Of a stretch of DNA of 64,000 nucleotides, positions 33,825 through 41,069 are shown in pieces. Within the stretch, counting starts at the first letter, position 1. Each line of letters begins with the position of its first letter. The notes below the pieces were generated by a model. That model worked only from the letters and a program-made list of their open reading frames with translations. It had not been told where the DNA came from and ran no database searches. The stretch comes from an uncultured Planctomycetota bacterium (GTDB taxonomy: Bacteria; Planctomycetota; Phycisphaerae; Tepidisphaerales; Tepidisphaeraceae), in NCBI GenBank assembly GCA_963841915.1, contig CAWJEN010000006.1, positions 160,001 to 224,000 of the forward strand, in the 5' to 3' direction. Made by a program: the position numbers and the translations under genes.

Positions 33825-35900
33825 CTACTTCGCGGTGAGCAGCGAGCGGTTGTTGCGCTCTTCAACGAGGCGGGCGACGGCTTCGTCGAGGGTGACGACG
33901 CCGAGGTCGCCTGTGGTTCTGCCGCGGAGGCTGACGGTGCCGGCCTCGGCTTCCTTGCCGCCGCAGACGAGCATGTACGGAACCTTCCGCTCGGTCGCGA
34001 GGCGGATCTTGGAGCCGACCTTGTCGTTGCCGTCGTCGAGCGTCGCCCGCAGACCTGCCGCTTTGCACGCGTCGACGACTTTGTGCCCGTAGTCGTTGAA
34101 TTTCTCACTGATCGGCAGCACCCGTACCTGCTCGGGGGCCAGCCACAACGGGAAAGCGCCGGCAAAGTGTTCGATGAGGACGCCGACGAACCGCTCCATC
34201 GAGCCGAAGGGCGCGCGGTGGATCATGACCGGACGGTGGTCGGTGTTGTCGCTGCCGACGTAGCTGAGGTCGAACCGCTGGGGCAACTGGTAGTCGACCT
34301 GCACCGTACCGAGCTGCCACTCGCGGCCGATGACGTCTTTCACCACAAAGTCGATCTTCGGCCCATAGAAAGCGGCCTCGCCCGGCTCGGTCGTGAAGGC
34401 GACGCCGAGCGTTTTGGCGGCCTCCGTGCAGGCGGCTTCGGCCTGGTCCCATTGCTTGGCATCGCCGACGAACTTGTCGGCGTCAGGGTCACGCAGGCCG
34501 ACGCGTACGCGATAGTCGTTCATGCCGAGCGTGCCGAGGACGATCTTGACCAGTTCCAGGCAACCCAGCACTTCGGCAGCGACCTGTTCTTCGGTACAGA
34601 AGATGTGCGCGTCGTCCTGCGTGAAGCCGCGGACGCGGGTCATGCCGCCGAGCTCGCCGGATTGCTCCCAGCGGTAGACGGTGCCGAACTCTGCGAGTCT
34701 TACCGGAAGATCGCGATAACTGTGCGGGTCCGACGCGTAGATGCGGATGTGGTGCGGGCAGTTCATGGGCTTGAGCATGAAGCCCTCGATTTCGCCTTCT
34801 CCGAGCTTGTTGGCCAGTTCGCCGCAGGTGCAGCCTTCCTTGGCGAGCAGCTCGACCGTCTCTTTCTCGATCAGCGGCGGGAACTGGCTGTCGCTGTAGT
34901 ACGGGTAGTGGCCGCTGGTTCGGTAGAGGTCGAGCTTGCCGATGTGCGGCGTGAAAACCTGCTTGTAGCCCTGCCGTTGGAGGTGCTCTCCGATGAAGTT
35001 CTGCAGCTCTTGGCGGACGACCGCGCCGTTGGGCTTCCAGAGGACAAGGCCCTGGCCGACCTTGTCGTCGATCGTGTACAGACCGAGGGCGGGCCCGAGG
35101 ACACGGTGGTCGCGTTTTTTGGCTTCTGCAAGGGATTCTAGGTGTGCGTCGAGGTCGCCCTGGGTGTAGAAGGCCGTGCCGTAGATGCGTTGGAAGCGGT
35201 CGCTGGTGACATCGCCGTGCCAGTGGGAGCTGGCGGTGCTGGTGAGCTTGTACGCCCCGATGCGGCCGGTCGATGGAACGTGCGGGCCTTGGCAGAGGTC
35301 TTCCCAGTTCTGATCCTTTTGCCCGGTGACGTACCACGAGAGCGTCGTCGCCCCGCCTGCGATGGCCCGATCGGCGTTGTCGAGTTTGTACTTGTTTCCT
35401 TCAGTCTTCAGCCGCTCGACGCCAGCCTCGGTCGGCAGGTCGTACCGGGTAAACGGACGATCCTCGCCGACGACGGCTGCCATTTCCGCCTCGATCTTCT
35501 CGAAGTCGTCGGAGCTGATCGGCGGCTCGATCGCGATGTCGTAGTAAAAGCCGGTCTCCAGCGGTGGTCCGTAGGCGAGAACCGCGTCCGGTCGAACCTT
35601 TTGGATCGCCTCTGCCATCACGTGTGCCGTCGAGTGCCGGAGCAGGTAGAGGGCGTCTTTCTCATGCTGTTCGTCACGCCATTTGCTGCGATCCTTCTTG
35701 TCGACGCGCGGGCCGGTGACGAGGGCAACGTCGTGCTCGCCTTCGGGCAGCGGGCGATGGAGGTCGACGAGCACATGGTCGACGCGGGCACCGACGGCGG
35801 CGGCGGCGAGCTTCTCGCCGATGGTCACGGCCAGGTCGTAAGGCGTGCTGCCGTCGGGCAGGTCGCGGCGGGAACCATCGGGCAGGATCGCGGTGGGCAT
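33825..35900 (-). CDS. thrS: Threonine--tRNA ligase
   Basis: TGS domain, RHSTAHVMA, DLCQGPH, RDHRVLG, KPMNCPHH, RVRGFTQDDAH, GEAAFYGPK. Confidence 0.98.
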   Translation of the reverse strand: MPTAILPDGSRRDLPDGSTPYDLAVTIGEKLAAAAVGARVDHVLVDLHRPLPEGEHDVALVTGPRVDKKDRSKWRDEQHEKDALYLLRHSTAHVMAEAIQKVRPDAVLAYGPPLETGFYYDIAIEPPISSDDFEKIEAEMAAVVGEDRPFTRYDLPTEAGVERLKTEGNKYKLDNADRAIAGGATTLSWYVTGQKDQNWEDLCQGPHVPSTGRIGAYKLTSTASSHWHGDVTSDRFQRIYGTAFYTQGDLDAHLESLAEAKKRDHRVLGPALGLYTIDDKVGQGLVLWKPNGAVVRQELQNFIGEHLQRQGYKQVFTPHIGKLDLYRTSGHYPYYSDSQFPPLIEKETVELLAKEGCTCGELANKLGEGEIEGFMLKPMNCPHHIRIYASDPHSYRDLPVRLAEFGTVYRWEQSGELGGMTRVRGFTQDDAHIFCTEEQVAAEVLGCLELVKIVLGTLGMNDYRVRVGLRDPDADKFVGDAKQWDQAEAACTEAAKTLGVAFTTEPGEAAFYGPKIDFVVKDVIGREWQLGTVQVDYQLPQRFDLSYVGSDNTDHRPVMIHRAPFGSMERFVGVLIEHFAGAFPLWLAPEQVRVLPISEKFNDYGHKVVDACKAAGLRATLDDGNDKVGSKIRLATERKVPYMLVCGGKEAEAGTVSLRGRTTGDLGVVTLDEAVARLVEERNNRSLLTAK

Positions 35901-35916
35901 GGTCGTTGGAAGGAGC

Positions 35917-35947
35917 AAACAAAAGCCGCCCGGTTGAGCGGGCGGCT
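35917..35947 (-). terminator. Attenuator terminator upstream of thrS
   Basis: Minus strand AGCCGCCCG-CTCAAC-CGGGCGGCT-TTTGTTT, 16 nt before the thrS ATG. Confidence 0.8.
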
Positions 35948-35976
35948 GCGTCAGGGTGGACGAGAACCGGCCCGCG

Positions 35977-36024
35977 TTACAGCGGCGTGGTCGAAGTGGT
36001 CGCGGTCGTCGTCGTGAAGGTCAC
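35977..36024 (-). CDS. Thr-rich leader peptide MTFTTTTATTSTTPL
   Basis: GTG start, 9 of 15 codons Thr, TAA; precedes terminator and thrS. Confidence 0.8.
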   Translation of the reverse strand: MTFTTTTATTSTTPL

Positions 36025-36030
36025 GGCCCA

Positions 36031-36058
36031 ACCATAGATCATGCCGCCGCTCATGCAA
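36031..36058 (-). promoter_or_regulatory. Sigma70-type promoter for the thrS leader
   Basis: TTGCAT-N16-TATGGT, 6 nt before the leader GTG. Confidence 0.55.
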
Positions 36059-36415
36059 CCGCTCCTCCTGAGACCGGTCGCCGTGACGCTGGATCCGACA
36101 TTCGTCGTGGCCAACGTCATCGAGGCCGGGCTTTGGGTGGTCGTCGCGATCATCGTCCTGGCGAAGTGGAAGCACAAGACGGCAGCGATCGTGCTCGTCG
36201 CATTCGGCATCAGCGACCTCGTCGAGACACAGACGGGTGCGTGGTGGAAGCCGTGGTGGCTACTCGCCTGGAAGGCACTGTGCGTGATCGCGCTGCTGGT
36301 GATCGTCGGTTCCACGTGGAAGTCGTCGGTTCCACGTGGAACAGGCGACGTCAAGATTTGGATGAGGCGCACCAAAAGACCGGCGCCCTGGAGGAGGAGG
36401 GGACGCCGGCCTTAG
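36041..36415 (+). CDS. Small membrane protein (start uncertain)
   Basis: Three hydrophobic segments; FGISDLVETQTGAWWKPWWLLAWK. Confidence 0.65.
   Translation: MPPLMQPLLLRPVAVTLDPTFVVANVIEAGLWVVVAIIVLAKWKHKTAAIVLVAFGISDLVETQTGAWWKPWWLLAWKALCVIALLVIVGSTWKSSVPRGTGDVKIWMRRTKRPAPWRRRGRRP
36308..36343. promoter_or_regulatory. Two tandem parS-like sites
   Basis: GGTTCCACGTGGAAGT (36308) and GGTTCCACGTGGAACA (36328) in a 20-bp tandem duplication. Confidence 0.75.
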
Positions 36416-36925
36416 AGGAGGCTCGAAAACGGATGCCGGCCGGAGGAGGAGAAGCCGGCACCCGTGGAGGAGGATCAAAAGCCGACGCTGGAGGAGGAGG
36501 AGAACCAGCGTCGGCTGCGGAGGAGGTCTAAAACCGACGTCGAGGGAGGAGGAAACTCGACGCCGGTTGGAGGAGGCTCGAAACCCGGCACCGGGGGAGG
36601 AGGAAACCCGATGCCGGATGGAGGAGGTCCTGAGGGCTGGCCAGTTGGCCTAGTGGCATTGGCGTCCGCATCGCCAAGGCCCTGCCCGTGTTCTAAAAGC
36701 CGATGCGGGCGGAGGAGGAGAACCCGCACCGGCTGGAGGAGGTTTAAAACGGGCACCGGCCGGAGGAGGAGAAGCCGATGCCCGTGGAGGAGGTTTGTGT
36801 GGTCGCTGCGTTCTCCGACGCTGAAGGCCCTTTCGGGCTGGTGCGGGCTTCGCGACGGTCGCGTCAGCTCCGCTGTGTTCTAAAACCGGTGCCGGCCGAA
36901 GGTTGTCCTCCGGCACCGGTTGCGG
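36372..36925 (-). ncRNA. Putative structured RNA array: hairpins with CCUCCUCC loops (cuckoo/anti-SD-like)
   Basis: 7 units of CCTCCTCC-stem-TT(C/T)CCTCCTCC-like loop-stem-TTT(T) at ~50-nt period, plus an eighth hairpin; stems vary in sequence but keep pairing. Confidence 0.7.
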
Positions 36926-36993
36926 GTCGGGCCCTCGCCCGGATTCCGCGTCTCTCCCTCGCCCCGAGGGTTGCATTTTCCCCCACGGATTCT

Positions 36994-37290
36994 CTAAGGC
37001 ATCCCGTCGTCATCTCGTTCATAGAACGAGGCGAAGAGGCCCGTGATCAGCACAGAACCGGCTGCGGCGACGCACATCAGTGGCGTCACGAGCCCGCCTT
37101 CCCGAACCAGCTCACCGTTCGCCAGCCACAGCAGGCCGGCAGCGACAAGAATGGCAACGAGTGGCAGCAGGAGCCGTCCGACGCGACGAACCAGGTGGTT
37201 CGCCTGGGCCACCCGCCAGTCGATGTAGTCGAGGGACGGGGACACGCGGTGAGTCGCAAGATCAGCGACATGCCGGAGGGCGTGGTTCAT
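36994..37290 (-). CDS. Small membrane protein
   Basis: GGAGA RBS before ATG at 37290; two TM helices. Confidence 0.6.
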   Translation of the reverse strand: MNHALRHVADLATHRVSPSLDYIDWRVAQANHLVRRVGRLLLPLVAILVAAGLLWLANGELVREGGLVTPLMCVAAAGSVLITGLFASFYERDDDGMP

Positions 37291-37937
37291 TGTGATCTCC
37301 ATCGCAATCGGCGGCCTTGCCTGCTGCGAAGAGGGGTTGAGTCGTTCTGAGCCGTCGCTTCTTGCGACGGGGTCGTGTCCGCCTCACCTGCCGACGGCAC
37401 CGTGCCGTCGTCTTGTGCAGGTTTGCGTCACGTTGAACCCTTTAGAGAAGTTCGTGCCACCCGACGCAGATCGAGGAAAAAAAACGCTGCGGGCGATGGG
37501 CAGGGAGCGTGAAAAGGCCGCTGATCGCTCGTATGGCTTGATTCGACGCTTCAAGTTTGTGACTTTATCTTCTGCGGCCTTTCGGACCTTCATCTACTGC
37601 TTACAGAACACTGCCTGCGGACTGGGCAATGTGGTGGGGAAGCGCGCAGTTGCATGCCAGTGCAGCGACGCCCGCCGCCGATGCCGCCAGACCTTTAAGT
37701 AAGACGTCGCGGAGTAGATGGCGACCCGAGGCTTATCGCTGCGTGTGCCATTCGCACCACAGGATGATTCGCGTCGTACGGTGCATTGACACGCGCAGGA
37801 AAAGTCTGCGCAATTCCAGTGGGACAGGCGGGTTCGTCCGCCTACACTGGCGGCCCGGCCGGTGGGTACGCGCTTGCGTCCCGCAACGGTTCGGTTCGGT
37901 TCGAAGGTACACGTGCGGCTCCGGCCGCGGGAGCGTT

Positions 37938-40900
37938 ATGGCTAAAGGTATTCGCGTCAGCTCACTGGCTAAGGAATTGGGAGTCAAGAGCAAGGACGTT
38001 CTGGCCAAGCTCCGCGAGGAGGGCTTGGGCGAGAAGGTGCCCAACCACCAGAGCACCGTCGGTCCGGGTTTGGAAGCCTCCATCCGCGATTGGTTCCCAG
38101 GAGCCGATGCAGGCGGTGGTGGAACTGCCACCGCCACCAAGACCACCAAGAAGGCCGTAAAGAAGACGACCAAGAAGGTCGCCAAGGCGGTGACCAAGAA
38201 TGCTCCCGCAGACGATGCGTCGGCTGCGCCCGCTGAGGAGGCTGAGACGTCTAAGGCCGCTCCACCGCCGCCTCCACCGCCTGCGGCACCGACGCCGCCG
38301 CCTGCGGCGCCGGTTGCACCTGCGGCGGTGGTTGCTGAGACGCCCCAAGCCGCCCCGCCTCCGCCGCCGCCCCGTCCGGCCCCGCCGGCCAACTCGCGTC
38401 CGACGCCGCCTGCGCCGCGTCCGCCCGTTGCTGCGCCTCAACCGCCGCTGCGTCCTGCTGCCACGATTTCGGGTCCGTCACCGTCGCTGGGTCGTCGCGA
38501 CCCCAAGACCGGCCGCCTGATCCCGCCGCCGGCACCGCCGGCGCCACCCAAGCCGCAGGCTCCGGTCGCGCCGCAGCGTCCTGCCGTGCGACCCGCCGCA
38601 CAAGCCCCGGGTCAGCCCGGTCGTCCGATGCCCCGGCCGGCCCCGCCGTCCGATGGTCGTCGCCCCGCCCCGCCGCAGCGTCCGGGTCAGCCCGGCCTGC
38701 CCGCCGGTGGCACCGTCAACCCCAACACGGGCGTTGCCGAGCAGCCGATGCGGCCGACGATTACGCTTGCCGATAAGCAAAAAGAGCTTCAAGAGCGGAT
38801 CAAGGTCGAGCGAGAAGCCAAACGCGCTGCCGAAGGTCCCGTCAAAGCCGCCCCACAGCTTTCGGAGCTGAAGAAGGCTGAGGTCAGCGGGCCCAAGGTC
38901 GTTCGCGTCGAAGCGCCCGACCACGTGCCTGCCCCACGTCGTCGCGACGCCTCGCGTCCGGGTGGACCGGCTCGCATTCCGACCGGACCCATCGCCAAAG
39001 GTGGTGGCGGCGTTAAGGTGCGTGACCCCAACGCAGCCGGCGCGCCAGGTACCGGAACCGGTGCCGCGGGTGATCGTGGCAGCCTGTCGGGTCGCCGTCG
39101 CACCGATGGTCGGCGTGGTGAGGCGCTTGAGAAGCTTCGCGAGTTCACCGACGCCGACATCATTGCTCGGCGCGATGCGCTCAATGCAGCCAAGGCCAAT
39201 CGGAACCTGCTGGATCGTCAGATGCAGCGGACCGCCCAGCGTGGTCGCGGTTTCCGCGCCCCCACGCCTTCGCAGTCGGACGGCCCGGTCATCGTCAAAG
39301 AGCCGATCACCGTCAAGAGCTTGTCGAACGATCTCGGCGTCCGCTCCAACTCGCTGCTTCGCACGCTGTTCGTCAAGCATGGCGCACGCGGCGTGAGCAT
39401 CAATAGCAGCCTCGATGCTGAACAGGCAGAGGCGTTGGCGATGGAGTTCGGGATCGACGTCGCTATCGAGCGTGAGCCGTCTGCCGAAGAGAAGCTCATC
39501 GAGCGGTTCATCGACATCGATGCCGCCATGGCCCCGGAGGATCTGACCTCCAGACCGCCCGTCGTGACCATCCTCGGCCACGTCGACCACGGCAAGACGA
39601 GCCTGCTGGACAAGATTCGCAACACCAATGTCGTCGCCGGCGAGAGTGGCGGCATCACGCAGCACGTTGCCGCCTTCGATGTCAGCATCGAGCGTGATGG
39701 CGAGACCAAGCAGGTCACATTTATCGACACGCCCGGCCACCAGGCCTTCACGGCCATGCGTGCCCGTGGTGCGCAGGTAACGGACATCGTCGTGCTGGTG
39801 ATCGATGCCGCCCAAGGCATTCAGCCGCAAACGACTGAGAGTATCAACCACGCCAAGGCCGCCGGCGTGCCGATCGTGGTCGCGCTCAACAAGATCGACC
39901 GTCCCGACGCCAATCCCGACAAGGTGCTTGGCGAACTAGCGGCTGCCGACCTGAACCCGGCCGAATGGGGTGGCGACACTGAAGTCGTCCGCACCAGTGC
40001 GATGACCGGCCAAGGGATCGACGATCTTCTGGAGATTCTCGACATTCAGGCCGAGATTCTCGAACTCCGGGCCGCGCCGCAGACGGCAGCCCGTGGCCGT
40101 GTGATCGAGGCGCGTCAAGCCCAGGGCCTTGGCCCGGTCGCGACAATCCTCGTGCAGCAAGGCACGCTCCGTGTCGGCGATGTCATTCTCGCCGGTGTCG
40201 GCTGGGGCCGCGTGCGTGCCCTGCAGAAGGCTGACGGCAAGAACCACAAGGAAGCCCCGCCCAGCACGCCCGTGCTCGTCAGCGGCTTCAATGAGGTTCC
40301 GTCGGCCGGTGACGCATTCTTCGTCATGAGCGACCTCGACGAAGCCGTCGCCGTCGCCGAAGAGCGTCGGTCGGAGCAGCGCCAGGAAGACCTTGCCCTC
40401 AAGAACAAGGTCAGTCTCGAGAACCTGTTCGACACCGTGGCCGAGGGCCAAATTAAGACGATCAACCTCATCCTCAAGGGCGACGTCAAGGGGTCGGTCG
40501 AGACGCTCCAAGCGACGGTCGGCCAGCACAACAACCAGGAAGTGCAGGTCAAGATCATCCACAGCGCTGTCGGTGCTGTGAATGAGAGTGATGTGGAGCT
40601 CGCCGACGCATCGGAGGCCGTCGTCATCGGCTTCCACGTCGCCATCGATGAGGGTGCCCGCCACCTCGCCGAGCAGCGTGGCGTCGAGATCCGGACGTAC
40701 AACGTCATCTACGAGATCTACGACGACATCAAGCTGGCCTTGAGCGGCCTGCTCACGCCCGACATCGAAGAGCGGTACCGTGGCACCTGCGAGGTGCGGC
40801 AGACGTTCCGCTCGAGCCGTCTGGGCACGATTGCCGGTTGCTACGTCACCGATGGCACGATCAGTCGCGATGCGTTCGTCCGCCTGCTGCGGGACGGCCG

Positions 40901-41069
40901 CATCGTGCAGGAAGAGCTTCGTGTCGACAGCCTCCGCCGCATCAAGGACGACGCCCGTGAGGTCAAGCAAGGCCTTGAGTGTGGTCTGAACCTGCAGAAC
41001 TACGACGACGTGAAGGACGGCGACAAGCTAGAGTTTTACGTCCGTGAAGAAGTCGCGCGGTCTCTTTAA
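37938..41069 (+). CDS. infB: Translation initiation factor IF-2
   Basis: [43 protein letters not shown]-terminus. Confidence 0.98.

Follow-up and report, generated by a model that had tools for sequence, protein, structure and literature searches.

A minus-strand array of hairpins with anti-Shine-Dalgarno-like motifs in a Tepidisphaeraceae genome as a candidate small regulatory RNA

The stretch of DNA analysed here, called the window, covers 64,000 nucleotides (nt; positions 160,001 to 224,000) of contig CAWJEN010000006.1 in the assembly GCA_963841915.1 of an uncultured Planctomycetota bacterium belonging to the family Tepidisphaeraceae. Between infB and thrS it contains an array of seven head-to-tail units of about 51-59 nt, found on the minus strand at window positions 36368-36799. 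Read from the high to the low coordinate, the gene order is infB (plus strand, divergent), an open reading frame (ORF) of 102 amino acids (aa) on the minus strand, the array (minus), an ORF of 124 aa (plus), a threonine-rich leader peptide with a terminator, and thrS (minus). The units are arranged in one block of two (U1-U2) and one block of five (U3-U7). From 5' to 3' each is composed of a single-stranded CCUCCUCC, a GC-rich stem of 11-13 base pairs (bp), a loop in which a second CCUCCUCC is displayed behind UU(C/U)(U), the 3' arm of the stem, and a short linker that is U-rich or A/U-rich (UUUUAAA, UUUUAGA, GUUUCGAG and similar). This agrees with the original prediction, made from the sequence alone, which had described seven minus-strand units of about 50 nt with two motifs in each.

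The units are variations of this design. U1 (36741-36799) begins with the single-stranded CCUCCUCC, has the stem CGGGCAUCGGC/GCCGGUGCCCG enclosing the loop UUCUCCUCCUCC, and is followed by UUUUAAA; it is matched by the covariance model R2 (see below) with 54.8 bits. U2 (36690-36748) is the final unit of the two-unit block, ends 3' in UUUUAGAACAC and scores 68.5 bits. The two blocks are separated by a structured spacer of 60 nt (36628-36687, minus strand), which has two small hairpins in its predicted fold and in which no sigma-70-like promoter was found. U3 (36575-36633), U4 (36524-36582) and U6 (36421-36479) are likewise matched by R2. The stem of U5 (36472-36530) is fully Watson-Crick, and the orthologous units in two other species of the genus (G003 and G004) differ from it by paired changes. 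U7 (36368-36427) is the terminal unit. It has a variant single-stranded motif, CCUCCUCU, two G-U pairs in the stem, and the tail UCUUUUGG. U7 overlaps the 3' end of the convergent plus-strand gene, and each of the four array-bearing genomes of the genus has an orthologous terminal unit. It had been claimed earlier that six of the seven stems contain a single internal G-U pair in the minus-strand sense. Six stems do carry such pairs and U5 has none, while the number per stem was wrong for U7, which has two.

The exact sequence CCTCCTCC is matched 17 times in the window, and 15 of these matches lie at 36390-36793, all of them on the minus strand. In dinucleotide shuffles the mean was 2.62 matches and the maximum six, and none of 100 shuffles reached 17. 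Because two of the array sites are CCTCCTCCTCC, the 15 matches correspond to 13 distinct sites, and together with the variant CCTCCTCT ahead of U7 they make up the 14 motifs that had been counted earlier. The pattern of two motifs per unit was found at no other place in the 3.63-Mb genome, which is assembled in six contigs. Tandem Repeats Finder reported only a weak period of 26 nt at the array, since the stems differ among the units.

The question of whether these hairpins are maintained as RNA structure was addressed using two alignments. The first (A2) consists of 25 units from the genus aligned with plain MAFFT, and has a consensus helix of 13 bp. The second (A4) contains 47 units from 17 genomes, with 22 units added from other genera, and was fitted to the model and thus leans toward structure. 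In A2, compensatory changes affecting both sides were found for 11 of the 13 pairs, and 97.5% of the cells are paired; in A4 the corresponding values are 13 of 13 pairs and 96.9%. The covariation score of A2 was 0.705, compared to 0.280 for column shuffles (none of 500 reached the observed value) and at most 0.144 for slid registers. A4 reached 0.729, where its shuffles gave 0.202 and slid registers no more than 0.113. As an example, the end of one stem arm in U5 is CUGG, pairing with CCAG, while in the corresponding unit of G003 the two are exchanged, CCAG being the arm and CUGG its partner. Among the 25 units little or no variation is seen in the CCUCCUC columns, while the stems vary. The earlier observation that the stems differ and still remain paired extends from the seven units to the genus and, across the family, to every stem pair.

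It is thus well supported that the array is a structured RNA, neither coding sequence nor a product of chance. Short ORFs do run across the region, for instance one of 93 aa at 36475-36756 on the minus strand, and could be taken for a repeat encoding a protein rich in Pro, Ser and Leu. The lengths of the units and the differences between species are nevertheless not multiples of three, and a coding repeat would not account for paired compensatory changes at all 13 stem pairs. An assembly artefact is contradicted by the array being found, with differing numbers of units, in four independently assembled genomes, and a dispersed repeat by its occurring once per genome. An explanation without any RNA element can therefore be given next to no credence, and this includes the possibility, raised with the original prediction, of a single Pro-rich ORF broken up by assembly indels.

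It is also well supported that the RNA strand is the minus strand, because of the G·U and A·C counts, the U-tracts and the z-scores of the folds. Counted on the minus strand, the ratio of G·U to A·C cells is 24:0 in A2 and 38:2 in A4. Tracts of U follow the hairpins on their 3' side in the CCUCC sense only, with long tracts behind the single-unit homologues described below. The predicted minus-strand fold has an energy of -209.7 kcal/mol (z -11.2) and the plus-strand fold -197.6 kcal/mol (z -3.8), and in the former both motif positions are mostly unpaired. These results bear out the earlier suggestion of selection on a minus-strand RNA. If the plus strand were the functional one, it would expose some 14 sites rich in GGA, GGAGGAGG occurring in both loops and linkers, and could serve as a sponge for CsrA; two genes of the CsrA family are indeed present in the genome. 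Read in that direction, however, the 24 G·U pairs are replaced by 24 A·C mismatches (38 versus two in the wider set), the T-tracts become A-tracts on the 5' side so that no terminator follows, the z-score of the fold is far weaker, and the long U-tracts in which the single-unit homologues end belong to the CCUCC sense. A plus-strand CsrA sponge, already put forward as the weaker alternative when the array was first described, must on this evidence be regarded as very unlikely.

An eighth hairpin is found at 36885-36920 on the minus strand. As had been noticed earlier it is devoid of the loop motif and terminates in TTTAGAACAC, as does U2; the single-stranded motif is missing as well. It is followed by UUUAGAACAC, and R2 matches it with 22.1 bits (E-value 0.002). 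The hairpin was not found in the other three array-bearing genomes of the genus and is specific to this one. It is read as a decayed unit or as a plain terminator of the upstream gene. The shape of an intrinsic terminator, a GC-rich hairpin followed by a U-tract, is also displayed by all seven units, and a terminator pattern scan missed every one of them because their loops exceed the 8-nt limit of the scan. This shape does not explain the conserved motifs.

The gene upstream of the array (36994-37302, minus strand) is oriented in the same direction and encodes the protein of 102 aa, which has two predicted hydrophobic helices and a conserved P-x-M-C-V motif. No Pfam match (E-value ≤0.01) and no NCBIfam family was found for this small protein, and its Atlas neighbours were uninformative, with scores of at most 0.85. 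A search with the alignment of the protein found it in 35 of 141 family genomes, one copy in each, representing 24 of 76 genera. Of 30 small-protein loci retrieved from this search, 14 have an RNA unit immediately behind the gene in the same orientation, and G123 provides a fifteenth case; together these represent eight genera. In the remaining 16 loci no unit was found at an E-value of 0.01 or below, and what comes next is mostly a Thr-rich leader peptide or thrS. The RNA thus occupies a conserved spot between the small-protein gene and thrS in part of the family, and the upstream gene is possibly a co-transcript partner of the array. On the far side of this gene lies infB (ORF 37629-41069, plus strand), its Pfam domains falling within the translated span 37941-41069. 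The convergent gene on the other side of the array (36041-36415, plus strand) encodes a small membrane protein of 124 aa for which neither a Pfam nor an NCBIfam match was found; it is conserved in the genus, and its 3' end enters U7. In the 3' part of this ORF, at 36303-36341, there is a perfect 20-bp tandem duplication (two copies of TCGTCGGTTCCACGTGGAAG) with the 12-bp palindrome TTCCACGTGGAA, an insert not present in the other three genomes of the genus.

This setting invites an explanation by which the units act in cis only, as a 3' untranslated region (UTR) or a stack of terminators that stabilises or insulates the small-protein mRNA and halts convergent transcription, and which involves no targets in trans. 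All units consist of a hairpin with U residues behind it, the array is situated between convergent genes with its last unit overlapping the 3' end of the opposite one, and in the 14 loci mentioned above the unit directly follows the small-protein gene. In a terminator, however, loop and flank would not have to be conserved, and here CCUCCUC stays constant as the stems change. One terminator would be enough, and many homologues stand alone or follow unrelated genes. We therefore find a purely cis-acting function improbable.

Directly upstream of thrS (35924-36042, minus strand) there is a Thr-rich leader peptide, MIYGWAVTFTTTTATTSTTPL, followed by a GC hairpin and a U-tract. In other genera the corresponding leaders, downstream of the small-protein gene, have runs of six to seven Thr codons (L221, L227-L230, L232-L235). 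The arrangement resembles leader-peptide attenuation of threonyl-tRNA synthetase and is conserved over many genera of the family. In the thrS leader ORF an in-frame ATG is preceded at a distance of 7 nt by GGAGGAG (36053-36070, minus strand), which was considered as a target in cis. Since this site coincides with Leu codons of the opposite gene and is missing from G003, it was rejected as being probably incidental.

The spacer between the upstream gene and the array contains a G-rich box, CGGGGCGAGGGAGAGA (CGGGGCGAGGG-GAGAGA), at 36951-36966 on the minus strand. The box is conserved ahead of the arrays in five genomes, namely that of the window and G001, G003, G004 and G053 (loci L030, L031, L032 and L037), and in these four it is positioned about 45-190 nt before the first unit. 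In three of the five genomes a small hairpin of variable sequence comes next. It might serve as a promoter or as a site of processing, or else be a partner in pairing. A match to the sigma-54 consensus with two mismatches at 37444-37459 does not have the GC of the -12 box, and such matches occur at chance level (25 found, 29 expected). TAAAAT- or GAAAAT-like boxes were seen by eye 7-12 nt before the motif in stand-alone homologues.

The distribution of the RNA was determined by means of a covariance model of the unit with 59 positions and 13 pairs. The model R1 was trained on the units of the genus, while R2 was retrained on the 47 units. Syntenic arrays of five, five and eight units are found in three of the four other species of the genus, and no array was found in the remaining genome, which is 89% complete. 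Within the family R1 matched 17 of the 141 genomes, while R2 matched 62 of 141 genomes, 37 of 76 genera and 36 of 72 high-quality genomes; the search set for the order consists of these same 141 genomes. R1 gave no match among 130 genomes from 20 other families of the class, and R2 only three weak matches (29.6-36.0 bits) among 150 other genomes of the phylum sample. Running a covariance model on relatives had been suggested together with the original prediction, and it has thus yielded structure-conserving homologues in both genus and family. The model could also be the starting point of a new Rfam family.

Most genera have the element as a single gene of about 58 nt, made up of a 5' CCUCCUCCGC(C/A), a hairpin with CCUCC(UCC) in the loop, and a long U-tract. 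A few single-unit copies do not have the loop motif. Arrays are found in the genus of the window, where the packing is tightest, and in four other genomes (G053, G060, G123 and G113). The array of the window is so an amplified form of a small RNA (sRNA) found throughout the family. Apart from the copies behind the small-protein gene, the units stand alone or follow unrelated genes, four of which are of the PEP-CTERM type. In these four cases, L040 (G078), L066 (G081), L068 (G156) and L072 (G150), a single unit is located 7-62 nt past the stop codon; it retains the 5' CCUCCUCCGCA and is without the loop motif. These units may be 3'-UTR forms of the RNA. A wider search of contigs for three closely spaced copies of CCTCCTCC found, among 80 of at least 120 such stretches, mostly low-complexity or coding repeats, and the best match to the unit model was 33.8 bits (R2). 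This match, at 400-480 of L131, a contig from a metagenome-assembled genome of the Desulfobulbaceae, is a single locus with two single-stranded copies of CCUCCUCC followed by a hairpin with CCUCCUCC in its loop. It may represent an analogous RNA in another phylum.

The 3' tail of the 16S rRNA in this genome is GGAUCACCUCCUUUCU, and the motif of the units therefore contains the core of the anti-Shine-Dalgarno (anti-SD) sequence with three extra bases. How the Shine-Dalgarno (SD) sequence is used in the genome was assessed on crudely called ORFs, using a filter on GC content at third codon positions (GC3), the first ATG as start, and a regular expression to recognise signal peptides. Of 3583 ORFs, 74 (2%) have GGAGG between -16 and -3 relative to the first ATG, and 369 more have only a 4-mer; a peak in the spacing at 4-8 nt is visible, and small. 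Of 468 GAGGAGG sites, 28 precede a long ORF at a distance of 3-10 nt, as compared to three of 468 for the reverse complement. The assumption of the original prediction that few mRNAs in this genome are SD-led is in agreement with these numbers.

A signal-peptide-like N-terminus is found in 42 of the 74 ORFs with GGAGG and in 355 of 3140 without an SD (odds ratio 10.3, p 2e-20), a contrast that is inflated by an ATG behind GGAGG being likelier a true start and that depends on crude calls of ORFs and starts. When only starts at most 15 codons from an upstream stop were used, the proportions were 10 of 25 and 150 of 1348 (p 2e-4). GGAGG precedes 12 of 25 ORFs with the N-methyl (prepilin) motif, nine of them with GAGGAGG; in the permissive background set the proportion is 368 of 5540 (p 1.5e-8). 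Among the PEP-CTERM ORFs 10 of 58 have GGAGG (p 0.004). Pfam analysis of picked ORFs identified N_methyl in 10 of 10 (nine over the cut-off), DUF1559 in six of these (two over the cut-off), and PEP-CTERM in five of eight. The genome is rich in N_methyl/DUF1559 and PEP-CTERM proteins, and DUF1559 is a domain typical of Planctomycetota. The SD of genes encoding exported proteins is often CCUGAGGAGG, situated 5-7 nt before the ATG. Strong SD sites are thus rare in this genome and are concentrated on exported proteins, especially pseudopilin-like proteins with N-methyl and DUF1559 domains and PEP-CTERM proteins.

For the 74 leaders the median energy of the predicted duplex is -15.1 kcal/mol with the motifs of the units and -12.0 kcal/mol with the 16S tail. 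The leader predicted to pair most strongly with the unit motifs (-24.8 kcal/mol) is that of a gene encoding a membrane protein of 118 aa without a Pfam family (L255, at G000:C6:484190-484572). This leader has three tandem SD-like motifs, AGGAGGCGGAGGAGGAGG.

Given these observations, the function that we favour, and hold to be reasonably likely, is that of a trans-acting anti-SD sRNA, perhaps in the form of a precursor that is processed. The locus would be a non-coding RNA gene on the minus strand, in which the unit that is widespread in the family and order has been amplified in tandem. The exposed copies of CCUCCUCC, both the single-stranded one at the 5' end and the one in the loop, would pair with the extended SD (GGAGG, GAGGAGG) of a minority of the mRNAs. 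Units paired in this way would compete with the tail of the 16S rRNA, and initiation of translation would be blocked. The target mRNAs would be a small set rich in proteins of the envelope and of secretion, and the array would probably shut off the few genes with a strong ribosome-binding site. Probably it is part of the transcript of the upstream small membrane-protein gene, or is transcribed immediately downstream of that gene. The RNA could then act as one multivalent molecule, or as units of about 50 nt released by cleavage in the A/U-rich linkers, like CcsR1-4 in Rhodobacter. No promoter was recognised in the array or its spacers, and the spacers fold into small predicted hairpins, which would fit a single transcript from upstream, with leaky termination or processing at the linkers. 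Transcription, processing, target pairing and repression are what we infer from the sequence.

Several points weigh against a trans-acting anti-SD sRNA. The search for sigma-70-like promoters in 35900-37700 found none, and no sigma-54 -24/-12 element (GG-N10-GC, at least eight of ten matches) was found within 900 nt upstream in 23 loci. If the seven consecutive hairpin-plus-U units were efficient terminators, they could stop transcription after the first unit. As many as 79 of the 141 family genomes have no match to R2, and the RNA is therefore not essential to the lineage. No match to Hfq (PF17209) was found in the genome, which is 93.8% complete, and because no such gene was found the chaperone route known for CcsR is missing here. 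The inflated contrast in the signal-peptide counts must also be taken into account, and the strong SD sites of the secreted-protein families may be unrelated to this RNA.

High-valency layouts of a motif are known from the CsrB and RsmZ RNAs, which act as sponges by titrating a protein. By the same logic the minus-strand RNA might be a decoy, in which the copies of CCUCCUCC titrate a protein binding C/U-rich RNA or a factor recognising the 16S 3' tail, and which does not pair with mRNAs at all. The 14 motif sites on one possible transcript are arranged as in known sponge RNAs, the motif is the core of the 16S tail, and the negative search for Hfq would also fit. On the other hand no candidate binding protein is known or linked to the locus, and the sole conserved neighbour encodes a small membrane protein that belongs to no RNA-binding family. 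In most relatives there is just one unit, displaying one or two motifs, an arrangement better suited to a base-pairing seed than to a sponge. A decoy function therefore appears unlikely, and pairing with mRNAs is preferred.

A more far-reaching version of the pairing model is offered tentatively, and we find it rather doubtful: in a lineage where most translation starts from mRNAs that have no strong SD, the RNA, as a multivalent mimic of the anti-SD tail, would gate an SD-dependent regulon of N-methyl/DUF1559 and PEP-CTERM proteins without the need for Hfq, would have arisen independently of the cuckoo RNAs of alphaproteobacteria, and its dose would be set by the number of units, from one to eight. 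If the pairing model holds, the RNA would link the strength of the ribosome-binding site to control of the cell envelope, since strong SD sites mark mainly secreted and surface proteins, and a poorly studied phylum would have an RNA regulator with a clear set of targets that can be tested.

The known RNAs that most resemble the array are the cuckoo RNAs, which appear under the names ar14 (Rfam RF02344), NfeR1/SmrC14 and CcsR1-4 (RSs0680a-d; Rfam CcsR1, RF02791). They are described as having two to four adjacent hairpins with CCUCCUCCC loops and variable stems, and a screen of 2,689 genomes from 2015 found them in 78 alphaproteobacteria only (PMC4615179). In the literature cuckoo/CcsR RNAs are described as resembling the anti-SD sequence, as sharing a transcript with a small gene that precedes them, and as being cleaved by RNase E (PMC4615179; PMC8034643). 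In the Rfam search the best scores for ar14 were 35.2 bits (E-value 2e-4), 30.4 and 27.8, below its gathering score of 58.8; in the whole-genome search ar14 scored 27.8 bits. For CcsR1 the score was 21.3 bits with a gathering score of 65.3. In the ar14 alignment both hairpin loops fall on CCUCCUCC. Among the other Rfam families only one tRNA was above the gathering score in the window. Judged by these scores, the array is like the cuckoo/ar14/CcsR RNAs, as had been suggested at the outset, and lies outside both the ar14 and CcsR families while resembling them in how it would work.

The likeness consists of tandem paralogous GC-rich hairpins with variable stems and CCUCCUCC(C) loops, the anti-SD-like motif, and the co-oriented position behind a small gene. 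The motif CCUCCUCC is present in the loop of all seven hairpins while the stems vary, and the ninth C of CCUCCUCCC is not retained. The array differs from the cuckoo RNAs in that its units have a second, single-stranded motif 5' of the hairpin and a U-tract after each hairpin, and in that up to seven or eight units of about 51-59 nt are found, as opposed to two to four hairpins. The gene upstream of the array encodes a two-helix membrane protein, and not a DUF1127 protein (CcaF1) as is the case for CcsR; no DUF1127 was found in the genome at its 93.8% completeness, while a gene for RNase E/G is present. The cuckoo RNAs belong to the Alphaproteobacteria (Rhodobacterales, Rhizobiales), and the matches to R1 and R2 are confined almost to the family and order of the window, in another phylum. 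Full-text literature searches, judged by their result listings, turned up no description of an sRNA of this kind in Planctomycetes or Planctomycetota.

Other repressor sRNAs also use C-rich loops that pair with G-rich ribosome-binding sites, such as the hairpins of S. aureus RNAIII, RsaE/RoxS and the actinobacterial 6C RNA (partly PMC4615179). Their motifs are UCCC or CCCC, the architecture is different and without tandem identical modules, and none of them gave an Rfam match here. The many repeated hairpins which each expose the same short motif are also reminiscent of CsrB/RsmZ. Those RNAs, however, expose GGA and bind CsrA, while the transcribed strand of the array exposes the complement. 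The similarity to the cuckoo RNAs is compatible with common descent and with convergence alike. If the proposed function is true, tandem hairpins displaying CCUCCUCC have appeared in a phylum far from the Alphaproteobacteria, with another unit design, another neighbour and no Hfq, and mimicry of the anti-SD tail would be a general and repeatedly invented form of translation control.

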